Origin: an uncultured Desulfobacterales bacterium
Lineage (GTDB): Bacteria > Desulfobacterota > Desulfobacteria > Desulfobacterales > C00003060
Assembly: GCA_964502365.1 (NCBI GenBank)
Contig: CAZCWQ010000001.1
Location: 8,053 to 72,052 of the forward strand
Direction of reading: 5' to 3'
Length of the DNA stretch: 64,000 nucleotides
In this document: piece by piece, positions 3,270 through 58,740 of the stretch
Numbering within the stretch: position 1 is the stretch's first letter
Layout: each line of letters begins with the position of its first letter
Notes under the pieces: generated by a model
What the model saw: only the letters and a program-made list of their open reading frames with translations
The model's database searches: none
What the model was told of the DNA's origin: nothing
Translations under genes and position numbers: made by a program

Positions 3270-3461
3270 GCTTTTCCTGGTTGTCCCGGCATTACCTACT
3301 GGAAGTCGGCACGTTTAGTGATGGAAACGTCCTGAGACGGAGACTTGCAAGTCGTCAACTCCTTCACCCTCATGACCTGGGAGCTGACATCATCTGCCGT
3401 ACGGATCACACGTCCGCTTTCCTTTAAAGCGCGGATCCGTTTGTACAGGAGGAACGCAACA

Positions 3462-6136: not shown

Positions 6137-6147
6137 GAGAAAGTGTC

Positions 6148-9255: not shown

Positions 9256-9271
9256 GCAGAGGGAGGAAACT

Positions 9272-9814
9272 ATGAAATCAAGACACCTTATTGGCATGTT
9301 CTTACTTTTCTTGGCGGTTATAGGGTCTTCAGTGGTTTATGCAGGCACTGAAGAGTTTGACGCGGCAATGAACCCTATCTTGAAAGAATACTTGAAGATC
9401 CATGAGGCACTTGCGGCAGATAAGACGGACGGCGTAAAGAAGGCGGCAGAAAAGATTTTGAAACTTGCAGAGAGCCTTGATGCGCAGACAGTTACAGGCG
9501 AACATAAGCGTCATTATGAGCATGTGCCAATGAAGATCAAGGAGGCTGCGAGGAAACTTGCAAGAGGCAAAGATATCGGACAAATCAGGGAAACCTTCCA
9601 GGAGCTTTCTAGGCCCATGGCAATGTGGGGGAGCATGTCAAAACCAAAAGACATCTATGTTGTGTATTGCTCCATGGCAAAGGGCTCCTGGCTCCAGAAG
9701 GGTAAGGCCATTAGAAATCCTTACCACGGTCACAAAATGCTTCGCTGTGGAGAAATCGTAGGCGGTGCAGGTCTCGACAAAGACCCTCACCAGCATCACA
9801 TGAAGAGTCATTAG
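9272..9814 (+). CDS. DUF3347-like periplasmic protein with His-rich tail
   Basis: Strong RBS (GGGAGGAA), a signal peptide and a C-terminal HQHHMKSH. This family commonly accompanies metal efflux operons (from memory). Confidence 0.6.
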   Translation: MKSRHLIGMFLLFLAVIGSSVVYAGTEEFDAAMNPILKEYLKIHEALAADKTDGVKKAAEKILKLAESLDAQTVTGEHKRHYEHVPMKIKEAARKLARGKDIGQIRETFQELSRPMAMWGSMSKPKDIYVVYCSMAKGSWLQKGKAIRNPYHGHKMLRCGEIVGGAGLDKDPHQHHMKSH

Positions 9815-17909: not shown

Positions 17910-17913
17910 CTTG

Positions 17914-19230
17914 TTATCTCTTCCGTTCCGTGTGGCACTGGATGCACAGGTCATAGACAGTGGCAAATGGCATCATCGCAGGCTTGTTCCCTGTGCCGCA
18001 AGCCTTATGACAGCTTAGACACTCCACAGTGAGGTTCCTGTTCCTTTGGTCTACAACCTTTTCACCAATCGGATGTGTTGAGTGGGTCTGCCATTCGTGG
18101 CAACGGCCGCACAGCTCTATGCTGATAGACTCTTGTGAAATGAGCAGGACGTTATCTGAGGCGTGCGGAGAATGGCAGGCGATGCAATTGCCCGTCTTTA
18201 CGGGTTCGCACAACTTCGGGTTCTTGGGATTACTTATTGACCATTTTTGAAGTTCCACTGTATCGGAATGACACCTCCCGCAAAGATCGACAATGGCCCT
18301 CTTTAAGAGTTTCCCCTGCTTGGTGGCGTGGGGCCCATGACAATTCAAACATCCAGTCTGATCCACCAAAGGCCAGTGTGTGCGATTCTGGTTGAGCGTC
18401 TTATCAATCAGTTTCTTGTGACACTGCATGCACAACTCAGTGCCCTGCCATTTGGTCTTCAACGGGTTGGCCGAAGTTGGTTCTTGGTGGCATGCACTAC
18501 ACTGCTGTTTGCTCACAGGAACATGGGCATCGGCGAACACCATGCCCCTATCATTGGAGCCATGGGGGTCATGGCAGGAGCCACAGTTCGTCTTGGCCAC
18601 AGGGTAATTCATGTGCTTCCTGGAAAAAGAAGGTTTGCCCGTGTCATGGCACTCCACACAGAGGGAAGGGGCATCCTTCTTCAATAAGAAATCAGATTTC
18701 TCTGAGGCGTGCGGGTTATGGCAATTGAGGCACCCCTTTTTCGTGTTCAAGGGTTTATGTTTGAACCGGTTCTTCTTGACTTGGTTCCCCATGTCCTGGT
18801 GGCAATCAAAGCAAAGCTCGTTGCCTGTGTTGACCAGCTGAAACTGGTTGTCCGATCCGTGGGGATCGTGGCATTTGTTGCACTTGCCTTCTGCAACAAC
18901 CATATGGACCTTTTGTGCCTTCTCAGGCATCACGTCCTTATGGCAGTTGGAGCAAAGCCTCGTCGGCCCTGCGGTCAACAAGCCCTTGTGAGAAGATGTA
19001 TGAGGCTCATGGCATGCGGAACACTCGCCCCTTTTCATCAGAGGATGTACATAAGGGCTCTTAATCGTTTTTTGAAAGGTCTCATGACATTTCAGGCATA
19101 GTTGCCCTTTGGCCCCCAGCTTGAGTTTGTGTTTGCCCTCTGGGCGAGCACGAGTCGCCATAAGCAAAGTGCTCATGAGGCAGACCAGCAAGACAGTGGC
19201 GCGGCGCAGGTCAAGTTTCAATGGTCTCAT
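17914..19230 (-). CDS. multiheme c-type cytochrome, 16 CXXCH motifs
   Basis: I counted 16 CXXCH motifs. The start at 19230 forms an ATGA overlap with the upstream 26-heme gene stop, followed by a signal/TM segment. Confidence 0.9.
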   Translation of the reverse strand: MRPLKLDLRRATVLLVCLMSTLLMATRARPEGKHKLKLGAKGQLCLKCHETFQKTIKSPYVHPLMKRGECSACHEPHTSSHKGLLTAGPTRLCSNCHKDVMPEKAQKVHMVVAEGKCNKCHDPHGSDNQFQLVNTGNELCFDCHQDMGNQVKKNRFKHKPLNTKKGCLNCHNPHASEKSDFLLKKDAPSLCVECHDTGKPSFSRKHMNYPVAKTNCGSCHDPHGSNDRGMVFADAHVPVSKQQCSACHQEPTSANPLKTKWQGTELCMQCHKKLIDKTLNQNRTHWPLVDQTGCLNCHGPHATKQGKLLKRAIVDLCGRCHSDTVELQKWSISNPKNPKLCEPVKTGNCIACHSPHASDNVLLISQESISIELCGRCHEWQTHSTHPIGEKVVDQRNRNLTVECLSCHKACGTGNKPAMMPFATVYDLCIQCHTERKR

Positions 19231-21329
19231 GGTTTTTCCACTATGTGGCAGTCTACACATATATTGTCGGCAAAAGGCTTATGCATCTCGTCCTTGAAGA
19301 ATTTGGGATACCTTGAAACGTGAGGGGTGTGGCATTTTCTGCAATCCATCACCTTTGCGTCAATACGGATGTGGGCCTCGCCAAAAGAATCCGCGTCATA
19401 GTCGTGGCATTTTCCGCACAAGGGTTGAATCGGTTCCGCGATGAGGGCTAGTTCTGATGAAACATGGGGCAGGTGACATATCTGGCAGTTTTTCAGATCA
19501 GATGGCGCATGCACATAATACTTTATTTCAACGGCCTCGGGAGCAGTATCGCTCTCGCGCGCGGGCACCTCGCCTGGAGGAGTCTGCGCCTCTTTGTCTT
19601 CCGGGTACATTTTCGCTTTCAGTTCGGTATGGCAAGACAGGCACAAGTCAGGAAATGTGGCCAAGAGAAGGCTGTCGAGGTTTGCCTTATGAGGGCTGTG
19701 ACAGGCCGTACATTCCCCAGCCACCACGGGGCCATGTTGACTCTTGACGTCTGCTATTTCTTTGCCGGGGTCTGTGCCGTGGCATGAACGACACAGAAAG
19801 CTTTGCCTATTCACGATCATGCCCGGGATGTTACTTGCGTGGGCATCATGGCATCTTAGGCACTTTCCATCTCTGAAGTATTTGTGGCTGGAACCTCGCA
19901 CCTGCTTCTGCATAAGCTCACCGTGGCAGTTGGCACACAGTTGGGAGGAGGTGGCATCGGCTATCAGCATCTTTTCTCGGTCTGATCCGTGGGAACGATG
20001 GCAGGCGTCACAACTGCCATTGACTACAGGCTTATGGGTATTTGTTTTTGCGAACCGTATTTCAGCATCAAAATGACAGGCGTAACAAACCGTGTCCATC
20101 CTGTCCTTTAACATGCCCTTGAAATTCGACCCGTGGGAATTGTGGCAGGCATTACACATCCTGTCTGAAAAGGGTTGATGTGGGTTGCGGGTTCTCAGAT
20201 CTCTTTTTGTATTCTCATGACACGAGAAACACAGGTCTTCCACTTTTGCAATCAGGAGCTTCTCGTTCCTGGCGGCATGCCTCACATGGCATGAAAGGCA
20301 TCCTCTGTCGCTTGTGAGCGCTTGATGAGAGACCGCCACGGGGACGGCTTTATCGGCATGGCAACCGGCACAGAGTTGGTTGCCCTTCCTGGCAAGGAGG
20401 GTTGGATTTTCTGAGGTGTGGGGATTATGGCAAGAAATACATCGTCCCTTCTGAAAGGGCGAATGCTCGATATGCCCCCCTCCCTTAAGATCTGATGCCT
20501 TATGGCACTCGTGGCAAAGGTCGCTGCCCTTCATGGGCGTCTCAAAGGGTTTCTCGGACGAAGACGGGTTGTGGCATTTTATGCACTCAATGCTGAGAAC
20601 GGGGGGATGGGCACTGGTTCTCAACAGTCTGGGCTGTGATGATGAGTGGGGATTGTGGCAGTTGACACAGAGTGATACCTGTACAGGATAGTCGCCATGT
20701 GCTTTCTTGAATGATCTTTGACCATAGTCATGGCAGGATATGCAAAGGGCCGACTCTTTGTTCTTGAGGAGGTAAGGCTCGTCGGAACTGTGCGACAGGT
20801 GACAGACTTGACAAGGCTCTGTCTGCAATATCTTATGTACCACTTTCTTTTCGTAGCCTTCCCTCTTGTGACACTGGTAGCAAAGGTCGCGGCCTTGGGC
20901 CTTTAAGAGATGGCTTGCCTCGGACGCATGGGGGTCATGGCAGTTGGTGCATTTTCCTCTCTCGAGTCCTGTGTGCACCACGGACTTGTCCATGCCCATT
21001 TGCTTTTTTGTGTGGCACGGATAGCACAACCCCTTTCCCTCTTTCTTAAGTAGCAGCTTTGGGATCTTACCGTGTCTAAGGTGGCAATCTTCGCACTTAT
21101 TCTCCTTCACAACGGAATGAACGTTTTTCATTCCCAGATATTTAGCAGCAAAATCAGTGTGACACTCTACACACGCCTTACGCTCAAACTTGCGCGGTTG
21201 TCGCGAACGGACCGGCGCGCATGCCGAAAAGAAATAGAAAATCCCCGCCAGGACAAGTAGTACTCCCGCCACGACATATTTTCGCTTGCCAAGCATCAAG
21301 ACTCCGCGATCTCTCATTGCCATGGTCAT
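19227..21329 (-). CDS. giant multiheme c-type cytochrome, 26 CXXCH motifs
   Basis: I counted 26 CXXCH motifs in 700 aa. It has an N-terminal hydrophobic anchor ending FFSAC. Confidence 0.9.
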   Translation of the reverse strand: MTMAMRDRGVLMLGKRKYVVAGVLLVLAGIFYFFSACAPVRSRQPRKFERKACVECHTDFAAKYLGMKNVHSVVKENKCEDCHLRHGKIPKLLLKKEGKGLCYPCHTKKQMGMDKSVVHTGLERGKCTNCHDPHASEASHLLKAQGRDLCYQCHKREGYEKKVVHKILQTEPCQVCHLSHSSDEPYLLKNKESALCISCHDYGQRSFKKAHGDYPVQVSLCVNCHNPHSSSQPRLLRTSAHPPVLSIECIKCHNPSSSEKPFETPMKGSDLCHECHKASDLKGGGHIEHSPFQKGRCISCHNPHTSENPTLLARKGNQLCAGCHADKAVPVAVSHQALTSDRGCLSCHVRHAARNEKLLIAKVEDLCFSCHENTKRDLRTRNPHQPFSDRMCNACHNSHGSNFKGMLKDRMDTVCYACHFDAEIRFAKTNTHKPVVNGSCDACHRSHGSDREKMLIADATSSQLCANCHGELMQKQVRGSSHKYFRDGKCLRCHDAHASNIPGMIVNRQSFLCRSCHGTDPGKEIADVKSQHGPVVAGECTACHSPHKANLDSLLLATFPDLCLSCHTELKAKMYPEDKEAQTPPGEVPARESDTAPEAVEIKYYVHAPSDLKNCQICHLPHVSSELALIAEPIQPLCGKCHDYDADSFGEAHIRIDAKVMDCRKCHTPHVSRYPKFFKDEMHKPFADNICVDCHIVEKP

Positions 21330-25415: not shown

Positions 25416-26600
25416 ATGAAAACTACTAAGTTACTGGTTATCATGGCAGCAGTCCTGATAGCCGTTGGGTTAGGTGGCTCTGCCATGGCTTTCCATGACG
25501 GCGGTGTTGCACACTGCGACGGCTGCCACTCAATGCACCAGCAGGTGGACGGCGCGTCCAACCTTAGCGGGAATGCAAACAATAACCTGACCACAGGTTC
25601 AGACCCAAGCTCCACCTGTCTCAACTGCCATGCAGGAAGTGGAAGCTACCATATTCTGAGCGCAGATGGCACCAATTTTTACCCAGGTGGTGACTTCTAC
25701 TGGGTCACGGCAGGGTTATGGACGGTGGACCACGACACGGACAGCACGGACTCAAATCGCGGCCACAACATCACGGCCTTGGACTTTGGCCTTGGGGACG
25801 ATGGCAGACTGAATGTGGCTCCTGGTGGTACCTACCCCGATACCCAGCTGGGATGTAACAGCTGCCATGATCCTCACGCTAAAGTGGGCGGGGCTGGCGT
25901 AGGCCCCGGCGCACCAAACCCTGCGCCGATTTCAGGCTCCGGGTCATACGGTGACCCAGACCCTACGGATGGCTCTATCCTGGGTAACTATAGACTCCTT
26001 GGCGGTATCGGTTACGACGGTGGTCAGGGTGCAAGCGCCAACTTCGCCAATGCTGCTCCCATCGCTACGGCGCCAGCCTTTGGCTTTGCCCCCGGTAGTG
26101 TCGGCTTGACTGAGCGCGACGATAATCACGTAGACTACGGGTCAGGCATGTCGGGATGGTGTGGAAACTGTCATACCAGCTTCTTCTCAGGCGCCCACGT
26201 GCACCCGGTTGACACGGCTGCAACCCTGGGCGTGGAGGCCACTAATTACAATCACTACATCTCCACAGGCAACTTTGATACTTCAAGAACCGCCACAAGC
26301 GCAACCTACCTGGCGCTGGTGCCTTTTGAGAGAGGCACACCGGACAGAACACTCCTGTTGCCGACCAATACGGACGGTCCTGATGTTAATTCGCAGGTCA
26401 TGTGTCTGACATGCCACAGGGCTCATGCCTCACCATTCAAGCACATTGCCAGGTGGGATCTGAATACGGAGCTGCTGGCAGAGTCCAATGCAAACGCACC
26501 AGTGGCAGTGCAAGCCGTGCAATACTACGAAAGAGACATTGCAACCGACTTCGGCCCATGGCAAAGATCGCTGTGCAACAAGTGCCACGTGCAAGACTAG
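25416..26600 (+). CDS. omcS: OmcS-family hexaheme nanowire-type cytochrome
   Basis: Strong RBS (AAAGGAGGAAA), signal peptide ...AMA|FHDGGVAHCDGCHSMH and six CXXCH motifs. Blocks PGGDFYWV, APGGTYP..LGCNSCHDPH, YRLLGG, SGMSGWCGNCH, CLTCHRAHAS and a C-terminal CNKCHVQD parallel G. sulfurreducens OmcS as I recall its sequence. Confidence 0.85.
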   Translation: MKTTKLLVIMAAVLIAVGLGGSAMAFHDGGVAHCDGCHSMHQQVDGASNLSGNANNNLTTGSDPSSTCLNCHAGSGSYHILSADGTNFYPGGDFYWVTAGLWTVDHDTDSTDSNRGHNITALDFGLGDDGRLNVAPGGTYPDTQLGCNSCHDPHAKVGGAGVGPGAPNPAPISGSGSYGDPDPTDGSILGNYRLLGGIGYDGGQGASANFANAAPIATAPAFGFAPGSVGLTERDDNHVDYGSGMSGWCGNCHTSFFSGAHVHPVDTAATLGVEATNYNHYISTGNFDTSRTATSATYLALVPFERGTPDRTLLLPTNTDGPDVNSQVMCLTCHRAHASPFKHIARWDLNTELLAESNANAPVAVQAVQYYERDIATDFGPWQRSLCNKCHVQD

Positions 26601-37077: not shown

Positions 37078-38013
37078 ATGCAAAGACTATCGGTAGTAAC
37101 GATAACAATCATACTGTATGCCTTTAGCAACACTTTGCTATTTGCGGCCGACAACAATATCCCCGGGCTTGCAGATCTGGCAGAAGATACAAATCTTCAT
37201 TTTGACCAAAAATACTGCACGCAATGCCACGAGACGGTACCTGAAAAGGGAGTAGATACCTTGTTGAGATTTGACGGAAATCTTAGGCAGCTGTGTAGAT
37301 GTCATTACAATACGAGGGGTCGGTGTCCCCATCCGGCGGACATTCAACCCTCCCAGATCATGAAGACAAGGATCCCTGCTGATCTTCCCCTCAAAAACGG
37401 CAGGATCTGTTGTACCACATGCCACGATGTATATCTTCAGTGCCGAGACAGTGACATAGACAGGCTATTTCCGAAAGGAGACGCCTTTTTGAGAGGAGCA
37501 CCCTTTTCAAACAAGACAACACAGTGTTTTAGATGCCACGACAAAGAGCTATATGGGATGCTCAACCCTCACGACCAGTTGGACGGAAGCGGAAAGATCA
37601 TCGTCGAGCGATGTCTGTACTGCCATGTTGAAAAACCTGATGAAAAAAAGGCTGGATATAAGGATGTTAAGCTTGTCGGGGATCTTGAGATGCTATGTGT
37701 GAGATGCCATGGTCGTGTCAAGGCGAATAGGCAGTCCTTGCATGCCACTCACATTCGCAAGCCATCTGCCCAGGTCTTGGCTGGAATTGTCCAGGCTGAG
37801 AAGACATTTAAAACAACACTACCGCTGGACGCCGAAGGAAAAGTAACATGCGTAACATGTCATAATCCCCACGAAAAAGGTGTAATTCCCGCTACAAAAC
37901 CTGCGGCAAAGGGTGCTAGCGAGCCGTTCAAGCAACGCACACCGGGCAACATGTGCATCGCATGTCATGTCATGCAACAGGGAATCTCAGGCTCGAAGAT
38001 GGGTCGCAGGTGA
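37078..38013 (+). CDS. multiheme c-type cytochrome, 7 CXXCH motifs
   Basis: Signal peptide present. The motifs are CTQCH, CTTCH, CFRCH, CLYCH, CVRCH, CVTCH and CIACH, plus an odd CRCH. Confidence 0.85.
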   Translation: MQRLSVVTITIILYAFSNTLLFAADNNIPGLADLAEDTNLHFDQKYCTQCHETVPEKGVDTLLRFDGNLRQLCRCHYNTRGRCPHPADIQPSQIMKTRIPADLPLKNGRICCTTCHDVYLQCRDSDIDRLFPKGDAFLRGAPFSNKTTQCFRCHDKELYGMLNPHDQLDGSGKIIVERCLYCHVEKPDEKKAGYKDVKLVGDLEMLCVRCHGRVKANRQSLHATHIRKPSAQVLAGIVQAEKTFKTTLPLDAEGKVTCVTCHNPHEKGVIPATKPAAKGASEPFKQRTPGNMCIACHVMQQGISGSKMGRR

Positions 38014-38090
38014 AGTGCTCAGAGCCGGGTGGCCACGTTTCATGCCTATTGTTTGGAACACCCTGGTTGATACGGACATAGGGCCGCTGT

Positions 38091-38891
38091 TTACTGTTTA
38101 TTAGATTGGGTATCGCCGAATCGAAAGTCAATGACAGAGGGCAGGTAGAACGTATCGTATTTCTCTAGCATCCCAGTGACTTCTGTGGAAACCAGATGAT
38201 GAATACGATTTTCACTAAAGCCGAGTTGCGCAAAAGGGAGATAGCCCTCCTGTTTGTGACAATCAGTACAAAACACGGGCTTCTTTGATATGCCTGTGTG
38301 CAGTTCGACTTTTGCCTGAGCAACTTGATCAGCGGTATATTTGTCCTTGACTTCCAAGTATTGTTGCGCCGCTTTTTGGGTGATTGGCCTGAAAACGGTT
38401 TTTTCTCCACTGTCGGACACTGTTATTGGAAAGAGCTTGGCCGGGTATTTGCCGAATGCCCCTTTAACAGAAGAACTGACCTGCCCAGTTTCACGATCGA
38501 CCCAGGCAAAGGAAAAGTTGTTTTCCATAGAATCTTTCCTGACGTGGCAGACGGCACAAGCAATGAATCCGGTATGGAAATTCAGAAGGGACCGAACCTT
38601 TTTTTCTTTGCTATGAGGGTATGTCCCGTGACAAGTCAGACAAAGTGGCGGGTTTTGTTCAGGTTGTGTGACATAGTCGTCAACCATATGGAAATGACCG
38701 CGAGAAATGGTCCCTTTTTCTGTAAGGATTTCTCTGAAAACGTTTTCTCCTTTGGGACGTTCTGATATCCTAAAAGATTTTTTGGCAACAGCTTGGGGAA
38801 AGTAAACAACCCGAAGAAGCCAAAGGCCAAATGAGATAAAGACGACGATCAAAAGGGCTTTTATCAACTTTTTAATTCCACTAGCCATCAT
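38091..38891 (-). CDS. membrane-anchored triheme c-type cytochrome (Cbc-like operon, third gene)
   Basis: N-terminal TM helix with CLTCH, CAVCH and CTDCH. It is a paralog of the C-terminal two thirds of 41225-42169. Confidence 0.8.
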   Translation of the reverse strand: MMASGIKKLIKALLIVVFISFGLWLLRVVYFPQAVAKKSFRISERPKGENVFREILTEKGTISRGHFHMVDDYVTQPEQNPPLCLTCHGTYPHSKEKKVRSLLNFHTGFIACAVCHVRKDSMENNFSFAWVDRETGQVSSSVKGAFGKYPAKLFPITVSDSGEKTVFRPITQKAAQQYLEVKDKYTADQVAQAKVELHTGISKKPVFCTDCHKQEGYLPFAQLGFSENRIHHLVSTEVTGMLEKYDTFYLPSVIDFRFGDTQSNKQ

Positions 38892-38918
38892 TTTCAGATA
38901 TTGTTCCTATTTCCAGAA

Positions 38919-39674
38919 TCACTGGCCTTCCTGGATGATGTAAGTTTCCTGAAGTCTTGGATCAGACATGATCTTTTTATAGTGCAATGGGTGTTCTTCC
39001 TTCATAGTTTCTTCATCGATTACGCCATCTATCCAAACATTACTGAAGAGTTTGTACGGCCTCAAGTGGACTTCATACAAATGCCATATCATGATGGCCA
39101 GACAAGCCAGCACAGCTTCCATACCATGGATAATCGTGGCAAGATCGACTAAGAACCTGTTCCACAGAAATTCAGTCCACAGCATCAGACCAGTTATCGT
39201 CATGAGCGTATTGCCAAGAATAAGAGCCCCGTACTCCATCTTTTGCTTATAAGAGAAGCGGTCATATTGCGGGGGGGTTTTCTTAACACCAACGTAGAAG
39301 AGCATCGTGCTAATCATGTCTGTTAAATCCTTAGGTCTTGGGATCATATCCATGAGCCAACGACGCCCGGCCTTTTTAAACAACAGATAATAAAGATGGT
39401 ATAAACTGGTCAGCATCATAATGACGGCAGCAACCCGGTGTAAAATACCTCGATAATAGAACACAGGCTCCCGGGCTTCTCCAAGCATCTTGACTACTGT
39501 GGGTTCTGGGAGTTCCAACATGAGCCCAGTGATGGCCAGCACAATAAAACATGACACAAAGACAATGTGCTGTACTCTCTCTGCATAGGTTAGACGAACA
39601 AAATACCTTTTGGGTATACCTGAGCCCTTATCATAACTAGGAATATCTTTTAGCGTTACAACCTGTTCTGCCAT
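38919..39674 (-). CDS. membrane b-type cytochrome (FdnI/PhsC/Ni-hydrogenase cytochrome b family)
   Basis: About 5 TM helices with conserved His residues in TM helices (ERVQHIVF, LHRVAAVIM...YHLYY, IIHGMEAV...WHLYEVH). Confidence 0.75.
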   Translation of the reverse strand: MAEQVVTLKDIPSYDKGSGIPKRYFVRLTYAERVQHIVFVSCFIVLAITGLMLELPEPTVVKMLGEAREPVFYYRGILHRVAAVIMMLTSLYHLYYLLFKKAGRRWLMDMIPRPKDLTDMISTMLFYVGVKKTPPQYDRFSYKQKMEYGALILGNTLMTITGLMLWTEFLWNRFLVDLATIIHGMEAVLACLAIMIWHLYEVHLRPYKLFSNVWIDGVIDEETMKEEHPLHYKKIMSDPRLQETYIIQEGQ

Positions 39675-39702
39675 TTTAGCGGCCTTTCAAAGGAGGGGGC
39701 GA

Positions 39703-40863
39703 CTAATGCCCACTTTTGTGATTGCGTTTGGTTCGATAATAGTCCAGCATCTGGTGTAGTGACATAGATCCTATCACCAAGGCTATCAACACCTTATAAA
39801 AAAGTCTTACGAGGGTAAGTATCTTTTCCTGAAACACGTTTTTGTTGGAGATGCCGATTTCAGCTTGCCTCTTTGACTGCCAGGCTTTGTAGTTGACCTG
39901 AATGATATCTTTTCCGGCATAGGGCGCAACCGGCCCATTCATCCCAAACGCATGCTCTCTGCCAGCCACAAACTCCGCATCGGCATTGGGATGACATATC
40001 TGAACGCCTCCCTGGTGACGACAAGTATTTATTCTATTGGCAGGATTGACCGGCGAACGAGGGTCTGACGTGGTAAGGATATCATGTTTGGCATAGCCTA
40101 TGGGTACGTGACAATTCAGGCAATCCGGGGCGTTTTGAACGCCATATTTGATCTGAACCCAATGAAAGGTATCCCTGAAGGTCCCGACTGTTCTCAGGCC
40201 ATGTCGGGCCATCATTTGTGGATCTTCATGACAACTTAAACACAATTCCACGATCTCTGCCTGGCTCCTTCTCCTCCTCATACGGTGCGAAACATGCGAA
40301 TAGAATCGGTCTGCCCACTGTTGCTCCGTGTGGCAGCCAAAGCATCTGCCCAGTGCCTCATTGGCCAAAGGAGACCCCTCGCTCCACATAGTGCCACTAG
40401 GGTTGAGGATTCGATTATCGTGACAATACTTGCACGTCGGTAAGTCTTTGACATAGTTTTTGGGGCTCTTGGGTGTTCCAGTTCCGTGAGCGCTTGCTTC
40501 ATGTATCTTTAGAACCTTCAGGTGTGAGAATTGCTGTTTGCTGGACGGCTCTTCTGTGTGACATTTTGTGGCACAATCCACCTTCTTGACGTCGGTGTGA
40601 GGTATCTTGTCGAGGCCGACGTGACAGTCTTTGCATTTGAGCGTTCCATGCACCGACTCCGCAAACATCTTGTCGTTCAGATAGAATACCCTCTTGTTAC
40701 CATCTTCGTCATACCGTCCAATATGAGGATATCGGTGACACAACAGGCAATTCTCCGTGTCAGGGACCAGATCAATGGCTGCAAAGGCGACCCTAAAAGG
40801 AAGAACCAGAAAAAATACCATTATAAGAAACGCTATCACTGGTATCGAGCTGTCATTTCTCAT
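39703..40863 (-). CDS. membrane-anchored multiheme c-type cytochrome (6 CXXCH plus CX3CH), Cbc-like operon first gene
   Basis: Motifs are CLLCH, CKDCH, CKYCH, CFGCH, CLSCH and CLNCH, plus CATKCH. It has N- and C-terminal TM segments. I prefer the ATG at 40863 (MRNDSSIPVIAFLIMVFF...) over the TTG at 40944, which abuts a promoter-like site. Confidence 0.8.
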   Translation of the reverse strand: MRNDSSIPVIAFLIMVFFLVLPFRVAFAAIDLVPDTENCLLCHRYPHIGRYDEDGNKRVFYLNDKMFAESVHGTLKCKDCHVGLDKIPHTDVKKVDCATKCHTEEPSSKQQFSHLKVLKIHEASAHGTGTPKSPKNYVKDLPTCKYCHDNRILNPSGTMWSEGSPLANEALGRCFGCHTEQQWADRFYSHVSHRMRRRRSQAEIVELCLSCHEDPQMMARHGLRTVGTFRDTFHWVQIKYGVQNAPDCLNCHVPIGYAKHDILTTSDPRSPVNPANRINTCRHQGGVQICHPNADAEFVAGREHAFGMNGPVAPYAGKDIIQVNYKAWQSKRQAEIGISNKNVFQEKILTLVRLFYKVLIALVIGSMSLHQMLDYYRTKRNHKSGH

Positions 40864-40940
40864 GGATTCTATCTTTGTCCCAACTTCGCCTTTTTCCCAA
40901 GGCTGGATGGCCGAGTAATTGCTAGTAGTATCGTTTATAA

Positions 40941-40955
40941 TCAATGTCTGTGCCA
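40941..40955 (-). promoter_or_regulatory. candidate sigma-54-type promoter for the Cbc-like operon
   Basis: The reverse complement reads TGGCACAGACATTGA. The -24 box is perfect, but the -12 box is TTGA instead of TTGC. Confidence 0.4.
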
Positions 40956-41025
40956 GAATATTCCTATACGCCTGGACACATGGAAATCCAATGGGTTACA
41001 TGATTTAAGCTGTCTTCTTGAATGA

Positions 41026-41077
41026 TGAAATCAAAGAAATTTTGGTCAAAACACCATATGAAATCGGTCATTTCACC
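41026..41077. promoter_or_regulatory. cluster of TGAAATC-type sites related to the 23.9 kb palindromes
   Basis: TGAAATC occurs at 41026-41032 and 41059-41065. GGTCATTTCACC at 41066-41077 has reverse complement GGTGAAATGACC, an 11/12 match to GGTGAAATCACC. Confidence 0.35.
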
Positions 41078-41224
41078 ACACGGTCTATGACTTTTTCCTT
41101 ACACCCTGTGCCGTTGACAAATTGACAGAACTGGCCCATGATACTCAAATAATTCTGAACTATACACAAGACCAAGGCAAACCCGCAGGCCTTATGTTGG
41201 TTAAGAGGTCTCGTTTTTTGAAGA

Positions 41225-42169
41225 ATGAAAAAGCATCTGTTGGTAAATCTCTTGACTGTTGTTTGTAGTTGTTTTTTGTACACACAAGCCCTCGTTTGCT
41301 TCGCTGCCGACGAGACTGGATGCCTAACCTGCCACAAGTACCCAGGACTTGTAAGACGCGAAAAAGATGCACTCAAGGCGCTTCATATCGATGAACAAAC
41401 CTTTCTAGGCTCTCCCCATGGCAAGCTTAACTGCAAGCAGTGCCATGCAGACATCGTTAAGGTCCCCCACACCGGTCAGAATGCCGTCCGATGCGTCACG
41501 CCTGCGTGTCATGCGAGTGATAAGGAACGCGCTGTAATCGAAAAATATCCCTTACAGACCCTCCATCAGAAGGAGCATTCTTTTATCGTTAAGTTACAGG
41601 ATCAGTCATCGTGCAGAGTATGCCACGCCCTGTATCCCCACAGCAAGAGTAATCTGGTTAGAGCGCTACTCAACATGCACACAGGCTTCATAACCTGCGA
41701 GGTGTGCCATCTCAAACGAGATGCCTTTGCCCGTGTTGCCTATCAATGGAGCGAACCTGAACACGTTGAATTCACCGGCTTGCCTTATGGGTCCCGTTAT
41801 GATCCAGAGAGAGGAATTGTCAGAACAACCGGGAATCTTATATCTCGTTTGGTTGTCTTTGTTTGGGAAAAGGGCAGGAAAACGCTGTTCGTCCATAAAC
41901 AAGATGCTGACGAGGCGAATCGATTCTTGTTGGAGGAAAAAGGGCTGAAGGACAGGGACAAAGAGACCAAGTTGGTTTTTTTTCACAGGAATATCTCGCG
42001 TAAAGAGATAACCCTTGCCTGTAAAGAATGCCATTCCCGTAAGGGCATTCTGGATTTTGGCAGCCTTGGTTTCGGCAAAAAAAAGAGTAAAGACCTCATG
42101 GACCTCGATCTCGCGGGGTTGGTCGCTAAATACGACGTTTTTTATCTCCCAGATCTTTTTGGTCATTAG
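41225..42169 (+). CDS. multiheme c-type cytochrome (5 CXXCH plus CX4CH), mosaic of the two Cbc-operon cytochrome modules
   Basis: Motifs are CLTCH, CKQCH, CRVCH, CEVCH and CKECH, plus CVTPACH. The N-terminal ~100 aa parallel the 39703 gene and the remainder parallels the 38091 gene. Confidence 0.85.
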   Translation: MKKHLLVNLLTVVCSCFLYTQALVCFAADETGCLTCHKYPGLVRREKDALKALHIDEQTFLGSPHGKLNCKQCHADIVKVPHTGQNAVRCVTPACHASDKERAVIEKYPLQTLHQKEHSFIVKLQDQSSCRVCHALYPHSKSNLVRALLNMHTGFITCEVCHLKRDAFARVAYQWSEPEHVEFTGLPYGSRYDPERGIVRTTGNLISRLVVFVWEKGRKTLFVHKQDADEANRFLLEEKGLKDRDKETKLVFFHRNISRKEITLACKECHSRKGILDFGSLGFGKKKSKDLMDLDLAGLVAKYDVFYLPDLFGH

Positions 42170-42183
42170 TTCATCATAGCACC

Positions 42184-43170
42184 TTGAAACAGAATCTGTC
42201 GAAAAACCTTGCCCTCTTCAGAGCTACATGGGCAAATTGCTTGTCCCGCCTTTTTGTGTTGTCCTGCGTTATGCTGATGGTAATACCATTGCTCCCTGCA
42301 CATGCCGTACGGCTCGCCTATGTAAAAGGTCTTTTTGAGATTAACCATAATCTCCGAGCACCCACGGATGTCTCCGTTTCCAATCATGGCCTGATATATG
42401 TTGTAGACGGCGTACACCACGAAATCAAGATCTTCACGAGAAACGGTGAATTCCTGTCTTCTTTGGGTGGAAAGGGTTCTGGAAATGGCGAGTTTGAATC
42501 CCCTTTAGGAGTTGCAGTTGATGGCTCGGGCAGAGCCTACGTCGCCGATTCTGGAAATCACAGGGTGCAGATATTCAACCGGGATGGCAGCTTTGCCGCA
42601 TCAATTGACATTCCACCGGGCAATCTCCATCTGGCAGATCCCACAGATGTTGCTGTCAATGAGTCCACGAATACCTGTTACATCGTTGATAACGATAACC
42701 ATCGTGTCTTAGTCTATAATCTCAAGACCCTTGAATTTATGGGGAGCTTCGGAAAACCAGGGACCCAGAGGCGTGAATTCAGATATCCATTCCTTCTCGC
42801 CATAAACGCGGATGGATATCTCCATATTGTGGATGTCCTTAATACAAGGCTCCAGGTGCTCAGCCCGGAAGGTTATTTTGTTTCCGTTATTGGTAAGTGG
42901 GGCGTTGAACCGGGAGAGTTCTTCAGACCCAAGGGGGTGGCCATCGACAGGCAGGGGCGAGTTTATGTCAGTGATAGCTATATGGGGGTGATACAGGTAT
43001 TTGAGGCAGGCGGCGACTTTTGGGCCGTGATCGGTGATCCCAAAGATGAAACCGTGAAAAGATTTAGGACACCAACAGGCATATTCATCGACAATAATGA
43101 CCGACTTTATGTGGTGGAAACCTTTGCAGACAAGGTAAGCGTATACAGCTTGGGGACGGAAACCGAATAA
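42184..43170 (+). CDS. NHL-repeat beta-propeller protein
   Basis: Repeated blades (IYVVDGVHHEIKIF, AYVADSGNHRVQIF, CYIVDNDNHRVLVY, LHIVDVLNTRLQVL, VYVSDSYMGVIQVF, LYVVETFADKVSVY). The TTG start is uncertain. Confidence 0.8.
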   Translation: MKQNLSKNLALFRATWANCLSRLFVLSCVMLMVIPLLPAHAVRLAYVKGLFEINHNLRAPTDVSVSNHGLIYVVDGVHHEIKIFTRNGEFLSSLGGKGSGNGEFESPLGVAVDGSGRAYVADSGNHRVQIFNRDGSFAASIDIPPGNLHLADPTDVAVNESTNTCYIVDNDNHRVLVYNLKTLEFMGSFGKPGTQRREFRYPFLLAINADGYLHIVDVLNTRLQVLSPEGYFVSVIGKWGVEPGEFFRPKGVAIDRQGRVYVSDSYMGVIQVFEAGGDFWAVIGDPKDETVKRFRTPTGIFIDNNDRLYVVETFADKVSVYSLGTETE

Positions 43171-43179
43171 AGAAACACC

Positions 43180-45678
43180 TTGCCTTTGGAGCAAAGCGAA
43201 ACTCCTTTGAATCAAGTGAGATCTTACTGTGGCGTGAAGCAGGCGATTTGCCTCGGATTGTTATTCGCCTCCGTGCTATTCCAATTGCAGGTTTCCCACG
43301 CACAAGATGAAGCGTTGAGGAACCCTCGATCTGCAAAAGAGTGCGCCATATGCCACTATCGCTGGATCGATACGTTCTTTATCGATGGAAAAGGTTCCGA
43401 GCTGGTCCCGTACCAGTCGGAAAAGGTTGTGGCCACTCCTGATATGTGTTTTTCATGCCATGATGGCAGCGTGCTGGATTCGAGGGTAAGGGTGTACAAT
43501 GATTACGGACACAAGACGAACAAGCCACCGCCTTCTCATGTCAAGGTGCCCAAAACCTTCCCCTTGGATGAAAAGGGAAATGTGCAGTGTGCTACGTGCC
43601 ATACACCGCATGGTGTTCCGAGCGGGCCAACCGCCCAGGAAAGTATCTTCTTGAGAACTTCGAACAAAAACTCAGCCATGTGCCGGATGTGTCATGCTGA
43701 TGTGGACGGAGGGATAGATACAGGGAATCATCCCATCGGCGAGATGAAACAAGTTATTCCTGGAAGCCTTGTTTCCCTTGGCAGTGCCGTGGGGACAAGT
43801 GGTCGTCTAATCATTTGTGAGACATGCCACACAGCGCACGGCTCGCCTTACGAGAACCTTTTGATTAAGAGCGGCAGGGATTCCGGGCTGTGTGTCGAAT
43901 GTCACCGGGAAAAAGACAATAGAATCTCCCATGGAAAGAAAAAGCCGTTTCACCTGGTCAATGTCGTACCCAGGAGAGTCATAGTGCCCGAGAAGCTCAT
44001 TGAGAGGGGAGCAAGATTGGGTCGTGAGAGAAAAATCATCTGCCAGTCCTGTCATAAGGTGCATCATAATAAAATCAAACAGAGACTGTTGATCGTCAGA
44101 CAGGACATGCACTCCAGCCTATGTCTTACTTGTCACACAGAGAAGAAATACATTTTGGATACAAAACATAATCTCATCCATTCCGCACCACGAGAAAAGA
44201 ATCTCCAGGCAAAGACCGTAAGAGAGAAGGGCGTGTGCTCGGCCTGTCACTTGCCTCACAAACCGGCTCGGAGAGTAGATGAGGACCGGGATTTCGCTTC
44301 AGGGCTCTGTTTGAGCTGTCACAGCAAAGGACATGTGGGCGAGAATCCTCTGCTTGATGGGTATTCTCATCCTTTGAATGTAAGACCAAGCAGTAAAAAA
44401 CACGTAAATACCTTAGCTGGTGCACAAAGCATTCGGTCATCAGGACCGATGCTTCCTCTTTTTGCGGAATTTGGCATTCAGGACAAAACCGGGAAGCTTG
44501 CTTGCCCAACGTGTCATGACGCTCACAGATGGCAGGCGAACTCAACGGTGGGAGAAACAAGAAAAGGTGTGAAAGGAAATCGGATGACATCGTTTCTGCG
44601 GAGTCCATCGCCAGAGATTTGCCAGGACTGCCACAGCGAGAAGTTCTTTGTTGTAGACTCGGGACATGATCTGAGGAAGGTTGCTCCTTTGGAGAGGAAC
44701 ATTTTCGATCAGACGCCGTCGAAATCGGGTCTCTGTGGAAGCTGTCATCTTGTGCATGGGGGACAGAAAGATTTCTTGTGGGCGAGGGAAATTACTTCCA
44801 TGGGTGGGAGTATCGTGCAAGATTTGTGTTCGAGCTGCCACAACAAAAAGGGCATGGCAAAAGATAATGTGATAAAGGGGTATTCTCATCCTCTAAACAT
44901 CCTACCTTCGGAAAAAGACATCAAGACCACGCTTCCCCTTTTTGATGAAAACGACAGAATTCGTGAAAATGGTGTGATGCGATGCCACACGTGCCACGAT
45001 ACGCATGGTTCGCTTCCATCAGCATCAGGCAATGACCGCGTCGATGTTGTCAAGAACTCAAAAAACAGGTTTCTGAGATTGGAATATACACCATCTCCCA
45101 GGCTCTGCGAAGATTGCCACAGCAAGAAAGCGTACATTGAGAGGACCGAGCATGACCTGACTGTGACAGCGCCTTTGTCAAAAAATGAAATAGACAAACT
45201 ACCTTCTCAATCAGGCATATGCGGAGTCTGCCATGCTGTACACGGCAGCAAAAACAAGACAAGACTTTGGGCGCAGGCCTTTGGGACGGGTAACAACATC
45301 ATGGAAAGGATGTGCAATTCTTGTCATTCAGAAATAGGGTCAGCAAGAGACAAGATACCACGAATCGCGTCTCATCCAGATGTGCTCATTAACAACCTTG
45401 GACGAAACGCTAAAGGAAGCCTCCATTTTTTCCCACTGTTTCACAAAAGATCTGGGGAAATGGTGGAAGTTGGCAATATCTCATGTCCCTCGTGCCATGA
45501 CGGGCATATCTGGGATCCGCAGTCTCGCGCTAAGGGGAAAGGAAAAAGACTGGAGGGAGATGCGACCAACAGCTTTCTGAGGGGTAGAGCTCGCGATCTG
45601 CCCTGCAAGAACTGTCACGGCCCTGACGGACTGTTTAAGTTGCTTTATTTCCATGAACCTGGAAAACGGGCAAGCTAG
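43180..45678 (+). CDS. giant multiheme c-type cytochrome, 20 CXXCH motifs
   Basis: I counted 20 CXXCH motifs in about 830 aa, with a hydrophobic signal-like segment. The start codon is uncertain (TTG 43180 or a downstream GTG). Confidence 0.85.
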   Translation: MPLEQSETPLNQVRSYCGVKQAICLGLLFASVLFQLQVSHAQDEALRNPRSAKECAICHYRWIDTFFIDGKGSELVPYQSEKVVATPDMCFSCHDGSVLDSRVRVYNDYGHKTNKPPPSHVKVPKTFPLDEKGNVQCATCHTPHGVPSGPTAQESIFLRTSNKNSAMCRMCHADVDGGIDTGNHPIGEMKQVIPGSLVSLGSAVGTSGRLIICETCHTAHGSPYENLLIKSGRDSGLCVECHREKDNRISHGKKKPFHLVNVVPRRVIVPEKLIERGARLGRERKIICQSCHKVHHNKIKQRLLIVRQDMHSSLCLTCHTEKKYILDTKHNLIHSAPREKNLQAKTVREKGVCSACHLPHKPARRVDEDRDFASGLCLSCHSKGHVGENPLLDGYSHPLNVRPSSKKHVNTLAGAQSIRSSGPMLPLFAEFGIQDKTGKLACPTCHDAHRWQANSTVGETRKGVKGNRMTSFLRSPSPEICQDCHSEKFFVVDSGHDLRKVAPLERNIFDQTPSKSGLCGSCHLVHGGQKDFLWAREITSMGGSIVQDLCSSCHNKKGMAKDNVIKGYSHPLNILPSEKDIKTTLPLFDENDRIRENGVMRCHTCHDTHGSLPSASGNDRVDVVKNSKNRFLRLEYTPSPRLCEDCHSKKAYIERTEHDLTVTAPLSKNEIDKLPSQSGICGVCHAVHGSKNKTRLWAQAFGTGNNIMERMCNSCHSEIGSARDKIPRIASHPDVLINNLGRNAKGSLHFFPLFHKRSGEMVEVGNISCPSCHDGHIWDPQSRAKGKGKRLEGDATNSFLRGRARDLPCKNCHGPDGLFKLLYFHEPGKRAS

Positions 45679-46059
45679 CAAGTTGTCATTATAACTTGCT
45701 GTCGGAAAGCACATAAATACTGCCGGCGGATACGGAAGGATCATGTGTGTGGCCACCTCCATCACATCCAATTCAACGATTCTCATTCATCATAACCATG
45801 CCCACCAAACAGCAGGCCAGATCCTGTAAGCCTCCTACAAGCTAGCATCTGAAATCCAGCGATTATTTCAGACTATTCAGTTCCGAAATTCAAATGCCGA
45901 TACAATGGTCATGAATGACTAAAGGCTTGGCGAGGACGCGCTAGTCCATACGCAGCGTATGTGGGTTGAACTATCCCATGACATAGCGTATAGCTGGATG
46001 ATGCCAGCTTACCTATTTCCATATTGTCAGTCAGTTGCGGCGATTTTTTACGTGTCAAG

Positions 46060-47196
46060 ATGAAGAACAGGCTGGAAGCGATACTCATAACCATACTTGC
46101 TTTGACGGGAAACCTCGCCCTTCAAGTGCTGCCGGGTCCTGCCCACGCCTTCCATGAAGGGGGTGTTGGGTACTGCGAAGGCTGTCATGTTTTGAATGAA
46201 TCGCCAGAAGACCAGACTCCCACCGGCCCACAGCTTCGAGGCTCAGATCCGAGCTCAACTTGTCTGCGTTGTCATGCAGATGAAGGCAAGTTCTTCAACG
46301 TGATGAGTCAAGACGGGTCATCGTATACCCCGGGGGGTGACTTCTATTGGTTGACAAAAACTTTCCTGTGGAGTGTCAATGGAAGGTCTTACCGAAGCCC
46401 CGGCAACAATCACGGCCACAATGTCGTTGCTGCTGATTACGGCTTGGCTCCGGACCAGATACGGGGCTCGGCTCCCGGTGGCATATACCCTTCAACTGCG
46501 ATGGGTTGTAACAGCTGTCACAACCCCCATGCAATGACATCGACTTCTGGCTTTTACGAGGAAGACCCTCCCCCGGGAACAGAGGTGGGCAACTTCAGGC
46601 TTCTTGGCGGAACCAATTACCGCGCTGGTGACCGAGTTAACGGTATGGTTTTTTCATATCCATCCCCCGTGGCTGTGGCCAACGTAAATGACTGGATTGA
46701 GACCGACTTCAACCACACCGCCTATGGTTCAGGAATGTCCGATTGGTGTGGTAATTGCCACACCGGCATTCTCAATGAGGGCAACAAGCACCCGTGTGGG
46801 AAAATCGCGGGACTTAGCGCCACCATCATTTCCAATTACAACGCCTACATGGCCACAGGCCTTCTAGGCGGATTTCAAACAACATCCTATTTGTCATTAG
46901 TCCCTTTCGAGGTTGGGACAACGGCAGAGTATCTCCTTGACCCATCCAGCACGTCTGGGCCCGAAGGAACGGCCAATGTCATGTGTCTGACTTGTCACAG
47001 GGCCCATGCCTCGGCCTTTCAGGATATTGGGAGATGGGATTTTCAATCTACATTCATCGCTAATTCGCATCCCAAACCAGGTGACGGCGGCATAACCGGT
47101 AATGACGTACTCAACAGCTATTACGGCAGGAATATGATTGCAGAGTTTGGCAGCTTCCAAAGACAGCTTTGCAATAAATGTCACCTGCAAGATTAG
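46060..47196 (+). CDS. OmcS-family hexaheme cytochrome, second paralog
   Basis: ATG 46060, signal ...AHA|FHEGGVGYCEGCHVLN, six CXXCH motifs. It shares the same conserved blocks as 25416-26600 and ends CNKCHLQD. Confidence 0.85.
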   Translation: MKNRLEAILITILALTGNLALQVLPGPAHAFHEGGVGYCEGCHVLNESPEDQTPTGPQLRGSDPSSTCLRCHADEGKFFNVMSQDGSSYTPGGDFYWLTKTFLWSVNGRSYRSPGNNHGHNVVAADYGLAPDQIRGSAPGGIYPSTAMGCNSCHNPHAMTSTSGFYEEDPPPGTEVGNFRLLGGTNYRAGDRVNGMVFSYPSPVAVANVNDWIETDFNHTAYGSGMSDWCGNCHTGILNEGNKHPCGKIAGLSATIISNYNAYMATGLLGGFQTTSYLSLVPFEVGTTAEYLLDPSSTSGPEGTANVMCLTCHRAHASAFQDIGRWDFQSTFIANSHPKPGDGGITGNDVLNSYYGRNMIAEFGSFQRQLCNKCHLQD

Positions 47197-53710: not shown

Positions 53711-53967
53711 GTGCTGGAATTGCTCGATTCCCAGATAGAAGTCATGGCAAGTAAAGCTGCAATTGTGACAGCATAGATACCGCCTCAATATGTTGTAGCA
53801 CTTCCATTTGCCCCACCTGGCCGTAAACCAGGATGCAGTGCTCTTCTGTGAATACAGTCTTTTCCGCCATGAGATACAGTGTTCACCCTATTGATTCTGG
53901 CACTATCGGCAATTACTATATTATTGTTGTCTCCATGTGAAAGCAACGTGACAGAGAGAGGTGTAGC

Positions 53968-54288
53968 ATGACAGAGTTTATCCGTGTTCCTCCACAGGAA
54001 GTTAGGCAGAAAGTTGAGTCTGGCTCGGCTCTGCTTGTCTGCGCATATGATGATGAGCAGAAGTTTAACCAGAATCATCTCGAAGGAGCGATTTCGCTGT
54101 CGGAATTCAAGTCTAGACTAGCGTCTTTACCCAAAGATCAAGAGATCATATTCTACTGTGCTTGACCCAAGGAAGCAAGTGCTGTCGGTCAGGCAGAAAC
54201 ATACACAAAGGCAGGACACCGGAACATAACCGTACTAGGTGGCGGGGTTCAAGCCTGGAAAAGAGCTGGATATATACTTGAATCGTAG
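53968..54288 (+). CDS. rhodanese-like protein with in-frame UGA (candidate selenoprotein, or pseudogene)
   Basis: The ORF stops at TGA 54163-54165 inside ...IIFYCA[TGA]PKEASAVGQAETYTKAGHRNITVLGGGVQAWKRAGY. The same frame stays open to TAG 54286-54288, giving a complete ~106-aa rhodanese fold. Confidence 0.5.
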
Positions 54289-54365
54289 CTGAGACAATCC
54301 GTCCCCGTTTCAAGAATAATCACACATTAGGTCCATCGCCGTGAACAAAGGGAGATACTAGAACA

Positions 54366-54614
54366 ATGCGTGTACGTGTTACCGTGAAGAAAGGAAAATG
54401 TCTGGGTGGAATCCACAAACTTGGGCAGGCGTTTACGGTTGGGTGGACAACCCCTGAAGGAATGTGCTTGGGTGCCTGGAATGCCATATCTCCAAGTGTG
54501 ATTACACTGCTTTGCGGCGGGAATTTTCCATGGGAAAAACAGGCGGGTGTTACGACAATTCACTGTCCCGATCCCAAAGGCATAACATTTGAACTTAGAC
54601 GTATCGAAGAATGA
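54366..54614 (+). CDS. TIGR04076-like small protein
   Basis: RBS AAGGGAGA. 82 aa with ...G.C.GAW.AI.P....L..GG.FPW.......CPDP.....FE(L/I)RRI resembles the TIGR04076 family as I recall it. Confidence 0.55.
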   Translation: MRVRVTVKKGKCLGGIHKLGQAFTVGWTTPEGMCLGAWNAISPSVITLLCGGNFPWEKQAGVTTIHCPDPKGITFELRRIEE

Positions 54615-54682
54615 AGTACTAAAACCAATTATTAAGTATTCCTTAAAGGAGTGGGTTGCATTGACTTAGTCAAAAGTAGAGG

Positions 54683-54745
54683 TTGCTGAAATTCAACCGA
54701 CTTTTTGAAATCCTGAAGTCTTTGTGATACACAAAGTAAGTCTTA
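54683..54745 (+). repeat. promoter-bearing intergenic repeat, copy D
   Basis: TTGAAA(54705-54710)-17 bp-TACACA(54728-54733). It contains the perfect palindrome TTGTGATACACAA. Confidence 0.65.
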
Positions 54746-57719: not shown

Positions 57720-58292
57720 ATGAGAAGAAGATGTTCACAGGTGCTATTATTGGTAACTATAAGCCTGTTTCTAGTGAGTTGTGCTACCCCAAAGGGAGTC
57801 ACAAAGCAGGAACAAAGAGATTATGTCCTGAAAATGAAAGACGAAACACTGGCCAGGCTATATGCGCAAAAGCCAGAAACAAAAGCCATGATAAAGAAGG
57901 CTGCGGGGTACGGAGTTTTTAGCAACATAGGTACGCACATATTTCTTCTCGCCGGTGGTAGTGGTTATGGGGTTGTCATTGACAATGCCACAGCGCACAA
58001 AACGTATATGAAAATGAGATCAGTAGGTTTCGGCTTAGGGATAGGCGTAAAGGACGTCAGGGCAGTTTTCATATTCAAGAACAAGAGAGTGTTAAATGAA
58101 TTTGTAGAGAAAGGCTGGGAATTTGGAGGGCAGGCTGACGCTGCTGCGAAATCCGGGGACAAAGGTGCCGCTGTTGGTGGTGAAGCATATGTTGAGACTG
58201 GCATTGCTATTTATCAGCTTACAGAAGCTGGTGTTGCTCTCCAGGCAACAATTGCCGGAACGAAGTATTGGAAGGACAAAGATTTGAACTAG
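57720..58292 (+). CDS. SYLF/Ysc84-like (DUF500) lipoprotein
   Basis: Lipobox FLVSC. GYGVFSN...GGSGYGVV...GFGLGIG...GWEFGGQADAAA pattern matches the family. Confidence 0.7.
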   Translation: MRRRCSQVLLLVTISLFLVSCATPKGVTKQEQRDYVLKMKDETLARLYAQKPETKAMIKKAAGYGVFSNIGTHIFLLAGGSGYGVVIDNATAHKTYMKMRSVGFGLGIGVKDVRAVFIFKNKRVLNEFVEKGWEFGGQADAAAKSGDKGAAVGGEAYVETGIAIYQLTEAGVALQATIAGTKYWKDKDLN

Positions 58293-58323
58293 TGACTGTG
58301 ACAGACACTTTAAAGGAGGAAAC

Positions 58324-58506
58324 ATGAAAATCAACATTGAAAAGAGTCTGGTGGAATTCGAGCCGGAAAGCGACACAGAGACAGCTATGGTTGAAGCCCT
58401 GTGGAGACTGATCGTCGACTGCGCGAAGTTTAATAAGAAGCTTGTGCCAGTCGGAGAATACATACCACAAAAGAAAAACCTTGCACGATTTGTTATTGAG
58501 GACTGA
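58324..58506 (+). CDS. hypothetical small protein
   Basis: 60 aa with RBS AAGGAGGAAAC directly upstream. Confidence 0.4.
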   Translation: MKINIEKSLVEFEPESDTETAMVEALWRLIVDCAKFNKKLVPVGEYIPQKKNLARFVIED

Positions 58507-58740
58507 CCTCACGTCGGGCCTCTCATGATCCTTAGAGTAAAGAGCATTGACACAGGTGTGAAAGGAGAAGGAAGCCTATGGCTCACCGTACCCTCAGTCT
58601 CAGCGAACCACTTTATCAGCCTTGTCCCAATAGGCGACGGACTAATGCTCGTTCGTAAGCAATAAGAAAAGAAAGGAGGGTTGGCGTGAAGCTTTCGGGC
58701 CTTCATCTACCCTTGACATACCAGTTGGTTATTCTTCTTC

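Follow-up and report, generated by a model that had tools for sequence, protein, structure and literature searches.

A probable C-x-U rhodanese selenoprotein gene in a Desulfobacterales contig, from a 105-aa clade beside NCBIfam NF041203

Rhodaneses with the motif C-x-U in the active-site loop ("form 3") have been predicted to be bacterial selenoproteins since 2005 (Zhang & Gladyshev 2005), and the family is represented by the NCBIfam model NF041203 (rhodanese_LYCAU); reviews list it as predicted. A U-x-U form was described in 2007 from the Delta-1 and Delta-4 symbionts of Olavius algarvensis (Zhang & Gladyshev 2007; PMC1976440), and two of the homologous loci considered below, L023 and L073, come from these symbionts. 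That paper agrees with the first-pass annotation of this DNA, which had named rhodanese-related sulfurtransferases as one of the deltaproteobacterial selenoprotein families. In reviews of bacterial selenoproteins, no experimental characterisation of the C-x-U/U-x-U pair in a rhodanese active-site loop is given. The single-domain rhodaneses GlpE, YgaP, TSTD1 and BH2092 (PDB 1gmx, 2moi/5hbo, 6bev and 3nhv) have the same fold as the protein studied here, with the catalytic Cys at the same position.

The gene lies on the forward strand of the window, by which the whole 64-kb stretch of analysed DNA is meant. Its frame was found to run from ATG 53968 to an interrupting TGA at 54163-54165, flanked as EIIFYCA-TGA-PKEASAVGQ, and to be open from there until TAG 54286-54288, exactly as read in the first-pass annotation. 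The mechanical list of open reading frames contained only a 65-aa piece at this place (53968..54165). A GAGAGG at 53956..53961 (+), read off the sequence 6 nt 5' of the start codon, resembles a Shine-Dalgarno element and may serve as one. With the TGA read as Cys for scoring, the 106-aa product of 53968..54288 (+) matched Pfam PF00581 (Rhodanese) at residues 9-99, covering profile positions 2-101 of 102 with 45.7 bits against a cutoff of 22.2, while the 65-aa piece matched profile positions 2-69 only. A complete rhodanese domain is present only in the read-through product, which had been called a complete single-domain rhodanese of about 106 aa from the letters alone. Alignment to PDB 6mxv identified TGT 54157..54159 (+) as Cys64, the canonical catalytic cysteine of rhodaneses, and the UGA at 54163..54165 (+) is the predicted codon of Sec66, giving the motif C64-A-U66. 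From the translation, the Pfam match and 80 homologous copies built in the same way, we consider it very probable that 53968-54288 is one gene, encoding a single-domain C-x-U rhodanese selenoprotein of a known kind.

NF041203 was the best NCBIfam match of the window protein and of every clade member tested, and has in common with the window protein the Y-C-A-U motif (F-Y-C-A-U in the window), the single-domain architecture, and predicted Sec and Cys forms. The Sec column of the window clade also coincides, on the profile, with the W, encoded by TGA, of the protein P0321 (LYCTW, 127 aa), which aligned to the full model with 93.8 bits. The cutoff of NF041203 is 115 bits, and it was missed by the window protein (54.8 bits) and by the clade (49-65 bits). 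Clade members are about 105 aa long, compared with the 126 positions of the model, and usually only the C-terminal two thirds align. By sequence, the window gene is therefore placed in an uncurated, 105-aa FYCAU sister clade of NF041203: the family is already known, and the window adds to it a sister clade that present curated models overlook. The short basic loop of the classical GlpE/PspE type was absent from the window protein, and its scores on the GlpE and PspE NCBIfam models were far under the cutoffs.

A genome scan in which each species was represented by a single genome yielded 300 loci, and 80 of these were retained. The retained loci came from Thermodesulfobacteriota (Desulfobacterales, Syntrophales, Desulfobaccales and Desulfomonilaceae), Nitrospirota, Brocadia-type Planctomycetota, Poribacteria, Rokubacteria and others. 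In all, 81 copies were parsed, including the window's own sequence, which was re-found as L001; L047 was not parsed by the motif anchor and was left out. The Sec column was TGA in 81/81 parsed copies and TAA or TAG in none, while the genuine terminators of the same homologous genes were TAA in 39, TAG in 23 and TGA in 18. The alignment with UGA-containing orthologs that the first-pass annotation had proposed as a check thus returned an invariant TGA, with no scattered stops or frameshifts. No conserved neighbourhood accompanied the gene, with no neighbour family present in more than 7 of the 80 loci.

The sequence past the TGA had the properties of a reading frame. An in-frame stop within the next 33 codons occurred in 0/80 copies, while over the same stretch a stop interrupted the two shifted frames in 59/80 and 48/80 copies. 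Pairwise nucleotide differences at the three codon positions were 0.25/0.30/0.62 downstream of the TGA (measured over codons +11 to +35) and 0.26/0.19/0.61 upstream, and pairwise amino-acid identity was 0.58 past the TGA and 0.63 before it. Judged by these patterns, the segment 3' of the TGA evolves as coding sequence. The closest relatives, from other samples and with 86-98% identity, kept the TGA, the frame, the stop position and the hairpin described below.

In public protein data the gene appeared in truncated or altered form. A protein search returned 1210 relatives, and the best 120 were mostly exactly 65 aa long and ended in ...YCA; GenBank entries of this length, such as MGD8229880.1 and MFQ6078030.1, carry the name "rhodanese-like domain-containing protein". 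The "full-length" relatives among these 120 mostly had W at the stop column (YCAWP). For one of them, P0001, the DNA of contig L087 has TGA at this column, and translation of its called gene with the standard code does not give the query protein; hence, the W is a gene-caller artefact. That GenBank holds 65-aa fragments follows from the failure of the NF041203 model to reach the 105-aa clade.

Close relatives with a sense codon at the Sec column were rare: P0026, P0031, P0051 and P0107 have Cys (FYCxCP), P0043 has Thr and P0020 has Leu. An exhaustive profile search gave 998 cluster representatives at E <= 1e-10. Among the best 150 of these 998 there were 47 C-x-C domain hits with the motif FYCxCPx[DE]E, 21 hits that ended exactly at the Sec column, 4 with C-x-W, 3 with W-x-W and 2 that ended at the catalytic column. 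The loop motif YC.CP.E given in the first-pass annotation is therefore real, and the Cys/Sec correspondence that it drew from this motif was recovered in the more distant relatives, namely the four Cys proteins above and the 47 C-x-C hits. Its placement of the UGA at a Cys-equivalent position needs one refinement: the column is that of the second Cys of the clade's CxC motif and not that of the canonical catalytic Cys64, which lies two residues upstream. Other, distant profile matches (P0248, P0261, P0283, P0293 and P0301) were long proteins, one of 2327 aa, with 4-6 tandem canonical CGSGHRS rhodanese domains, and are unrelated to the Sec question.

The catalytic Cys column was itself variable. 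It was TGC or TGT in 65 copies and TGA in 16 (n = 81), giving U-x-U at L035, L039, L043, L045, L050, L052, L058, L059, L062, L063, L065, L068, L069, L071, L079 (copy 4238) and L080. The window gene is CxU; the form of these 16/81 copies is that described from the Olavius symbionts in PMC1976440. The U-x-U copies were spread across Nitrospirota and Thermodesulfobacteriota, and a rough NJ/Fitch estimate gave about 9 independent Cys/Sec switches at the catalytic column, with 5/16 U-x-U copies having a CxU copy as nearest neighbour. The form was described in 2007, and its repeated origin may not have been described before. At L079, CxU and UxU paralogs (3196 and 4238) lie 1 kb apart. On the Nitrospirota contig CAWHNC010000054, two identical copies of the gene (L015 and L016), oppositely oriented, are separated by about 11 kb.

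A putative SECIS-type hairpin was located inside the coding sequence at 54182..54196 (+), with the 5' arm CUGUC at 54182-54186, the loop GGUCA at 54187-54191 and the 3' arm GGCAG at 54192-54196, so that the loop begins 21 nt past the UGA. The structure was evaluated in a gap-free alignment of 80 sequences covering the first 60 nt from the TGA, in which a 6-bp helix is formed by columns 19-24 with 30-35 around a loop GGUCN at columns 25-29. In this helix 92.3% of cells were paired, compared with 18-50% when the 3' partner was slid, and its covariation score was reached by 0/500 shuffles; the 5-bp core was paired in 97.5% of cells across the 80 sequences. The pair of columns 21 and 33, which are the third positions of two Ala codons and therefore synonymous sites, occurred in four Watson-Crick types (U-A 55, C-G 10, G-C 4 and A-U 1), along with U-G in 7. 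RNAalifold independently returned the hairpin core at columns 21-24/30-33. The loop G at column 26 was invariant (80/80). Four-fold synonymous entropy was 1.5-1.9 bits across the gene and fell to 0.18 and 0.19 at codons +7 (GCC) and +8 (GGU), a result that makes no assumption about pairing and agrees with the covariation test.

The first-pass annotation had pointed to a hairpin at this place, which it called weak, and both the bases and the position were right. Its register was not: the bulged pairing UGCUG/CAG(G)CA at 54180-54195 was paired in 77.8% of cells, was equalled by 366/500 shuffles and had no covariation support, in contrast to 92-97% and 0/500 for CUGUC/GGCAG. Three relatives without Sec were examined at the DNA level. 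A perfect hairpin is kept by one of the two Cys forms, and the invariant loop G has been lost from the second Cys form and from the form with Thr. The Cys form that keeps the hairpin may be a recent conversion, and as a negative control for the hairpin the DNA of Cys forms is only partly informative.

By the published criteria for bacterial SECIS elements (PMC13188914, Fig. 2 legend), the loop has 3-9 nt with a G in its first two positions, the upper stem 4-16 bp, the distance from UGA to loop is 16-37 nt, and the MFE is <= -7.5 kcal/mol. The window hairpin agrees with the geometry, having a 5-nt loop that starts with GG, a 5-bp stem (6 bp in most homologs) and a spacing of 21 nt. Across the family the median energy was -13.1 kcal/mol and 96% of members passed -7.5. 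No Rfam match was obtained, either for the whole window at the gathering threshold or for 54100-54320 at E <= 10. The E. coli fdhF SECIS has a GGUC loop 18 nt past its UGA, comparable to the GGUC loop of the window at 21 nt, and in both the loop arises from an Ala/Val-Gly codon pair and sits on a short, G+C-rich stem within the coding sequence. The two differ in stem sequence and in length, the window stem being shorter (5 bp), and in the putative SECIS of the window no bulged U was seen and no lower stem was detected.

The loop GGUCA (54187-54191) is also fully complementary to UGACC (54163-54167), that is, to the Sec codon plus CC. The MFE fold of the UGA and 40 nt beyond it in the window was this pairing, at -8.1 kcal/mol, and not the SECIS-type hairpin. 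In the 80 homologs the complementarity was kept in 84.5% of cells, with zero compensatory double changes. A pseudoknot between loop and UGA codon is accordingly not claimed, the double changes being absent despite the kept complementarity; that the SECIS loop might also base-pair with the Sec codon context UGACC is a weaker possibility than the oxidoreductase reading considered below.

The first-pass annotation had set a simple nonsense pseudogene against its candidate selenoprotein, namely a rhodanese gene put out of function by an early stop, the open frame beyond it being a relic. The mechanical reading frame does stop at 54165, public gene callers give 65-aa products, and the local RNA fold of the window sequence taken singly was not significant: 54163-54235 folded at -10 kcal/mol with z = +1.0 against shuffles, so that no signal is seen until homologs are compared, and the impression of a weak hairpin was correct to this extent. 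Independent pseudogenes would be expected to carry stops and frameshifts at varied places, which were absent from the copies. Instead 80 copies, drawn from different species of several phyla, had the same TGA at one shared column, the 40 downstream codons were open in 80/80 with a coding pattern of substitution, and a hairpin with compensatory changes lay 3' of the TGA. The pseudogene reading is rejected at the family level, and for the window copy we regard it as highly improbable. The invariant TGA, the downstream coding constraint, the Cys pairs, the covarying hairpin and the literature together uphold the candidate selenoprotein. It is equally hard to maintain that one of the standard amino acids (Trp, Cys or Gly) is inserted at the UGA, whether through a reassigned code or through suppression by a near-cognate tRNA. 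This could be entertained since several databases show W at the column (YCAWP), and since Sec itself is predicted here from sequence. Trp is, however, the product of gene calling, as P0001 and the TGA of L087 demonstrate, and relatives without TGA have Cys, not Trp, at the column. TGA is also a normal stop, ending 13/36 Pfam-supported open reading frames in the window and 18 of the homologous genes; the window figure indicates a standard genetic code and excludes reassignment. An fdhF-type GGUC hairpin at SECIS distance is, in addition, the signature of SelB-dependent decoding, and the standard-amino-acid reading is accordingly given hardly any weight.

Somewhat more room, though still little, is left for a genuine selenoprotein family of which the window copy is not expressed as a selenoprotein, with Sec decoding lost or the weakened hairpin no longer working. 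None of selA, selB and selD (Pfam annotation of 42 ORFs) and no tRNA-Sec (tRNA scan) was found within the 64-kb window. The hairpin energy of the window, -6.1 to -7.0 kcal/mol, falls narrowly short of the -7.5 criterion because of a U-G wobble that stems from a Val codon and a basal G/A that does not pair. Downstream nonsynonymous:synonymous codon changes against the three nearest relatives were 4:2, 5:4 and 6:2, counts too few for a lineage-specific test of purifying selection (dN/dS). Against this reading, the identical weak core GCUGUCGGUCAGGCAG was also present in three distant homologs that contain Sec (L043, L045 and L060), the U-G variant occurred in 6/80 homologs and the basal pair was unpaired in 27/80, and the relatives at 86-98% identity retain all four features of the gene. 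In addition, the Deltaproteobacteria/Desulfobacterales, to which named relatives of a housekeeping enzyme of the window (80-87% identity, in MAGs) point, have large selenoproteomes according to PMC1976440. The selenoprotein reading is retained for the window copy as well, and from the sequence we infer that recoding of the UGA by SelB and tRNASec, with incorporation of selenium, takes place in the source organism.

Under the selenoprotein reading, the UGA at 54163-54165 would be recoded to selenocysteine, with the hairpin inside the coding sequence acting as a bacterial SECIS that brings SelB, carrying Sec-tRNASec, to the ribosome halted at this codon, and translation would go on for 40 more codons, to TAG 54286. 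The fold of the product was approached through a natural Cys-form homolog, for which an AF2 model had a pLDDT of 87.5 and a pTM of 0.80 and matched the single-domain rhodaneses BH2092, 6mxv, GlpE, YgaP and TSTD1 with a TM of about 0.75; the rhodanese fold is confirmed to the extent of this Cys-form model. In the closest sequence match, 6mxv, the canonical catalytic Cys of FYCGGGFRS (loop CGGGFRS) aligns with C64. The window loop, C-A-U-P-K-E-A-S, is two residues longer, is without the Arg of 6mxv and carries at +2 a further chalcogen residue, Sec.

The C64 and U66 columns both switch between Cys and Sec, as is expected for redox-active catalytic residues, and for this reason the two residues are proposed to work together. 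Cys64 and Sec66 would form a redox pair, either through thiol/selenol cycling with a selenenylsulfide or through a Cys persulfide resolved by Sec. By analogy, our best guess is such a Cys64-Sec66 redox pair, unlike the classical single-Cys persulfide carrier. The wider proposition, that the 105-aa FYCAU clade is functionally separate from other sulfurtransferases, as a rhodanese-fold oxidoreductase or selenium/sulfur relay that depends almost entirely on Sec, with a restructured loop C-A-U-P-x-E cycling via a Cys64-Sec66 selenenylsulfide and with repeated Cys-to-Sec switching at the catalytic column (UxU), is put forward tentatively, and we think it rather unlikely to hold.

A selenoprotein family known from computational prediction is thus confirmed at the sequence level, and the comparative evidence is unusually clear-cut: the TGA never varies, the hairpin covaries where changes are synonymous, and synonymous variation itself collapses locally. 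The family is also widespread, occurring in at least 300 species-representative genomes of Thermodesulfobacteriota, Nitrospirota, Brocadia-type Planctomycetota and others. Public annotation nevertheless routinely halves the gene: as the only curated model, NF041203, misses the clade, GenBank and IMG hold 65-aa "rhodanese-like" fragments or code-4 Trp translations, and a clade-specific model would mend hundreds of records. The scientific value of the finding is modest, and its practical value lies in annotation.

No further selenoprotein gene was evident in the 64-kb window. Other TGA-interrupted genes were sought there, yielding many chance candidates, and the best two (62989 to the end of the window, and 58092-58706 on the minus strand) were not selenoproteins. 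Near the start of the window, a MOSC-domain gene (741-1310, +) and an FdhD gene (1335-2210, +) share a frame, with a TGA and 8 codons between them; as each is a complete domain, these are two genes and not a read-through product. The presence of FdhD implies that the genome also encodes, at another place, a formate dehydrogenase, an enzyme that is often a selenoprotein.

Downstream of the rhodanese gene, a Cys-rich, 82-aa gene of the TIGR04076 family lies at 54366-54614 (+), 77 nt 3' of it, and from this arrangement the two may be co-transcribed. The adjacency was seen in the closest lineage only (L001 and L089) and not across the 80 loci. Sites resembling a promoter (53897-53924) and a terminator (54681-54698) were also present, and neither type was more numerous than in shuffles. 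Elsewhere, the window is dense in multihaem c-type cytochromes, at 16989-21329, 25416-26597 and 37078-47193, with Paired_CXXCH and MtrC/MtrF-like domains and lengths of up to 832 aa; they are accompanied by NHL beta-propeller proteins and a cytochrome b, and the set resembles extracellular electron-transfer clusters. A CusCBA-like heavy-metal RND efflux operon occupies 3345-9814 (+), comprising an outer-membrane factor, an AcrB-family pump, DUF3347 and a membrane-fusion protein with HMBD domains.
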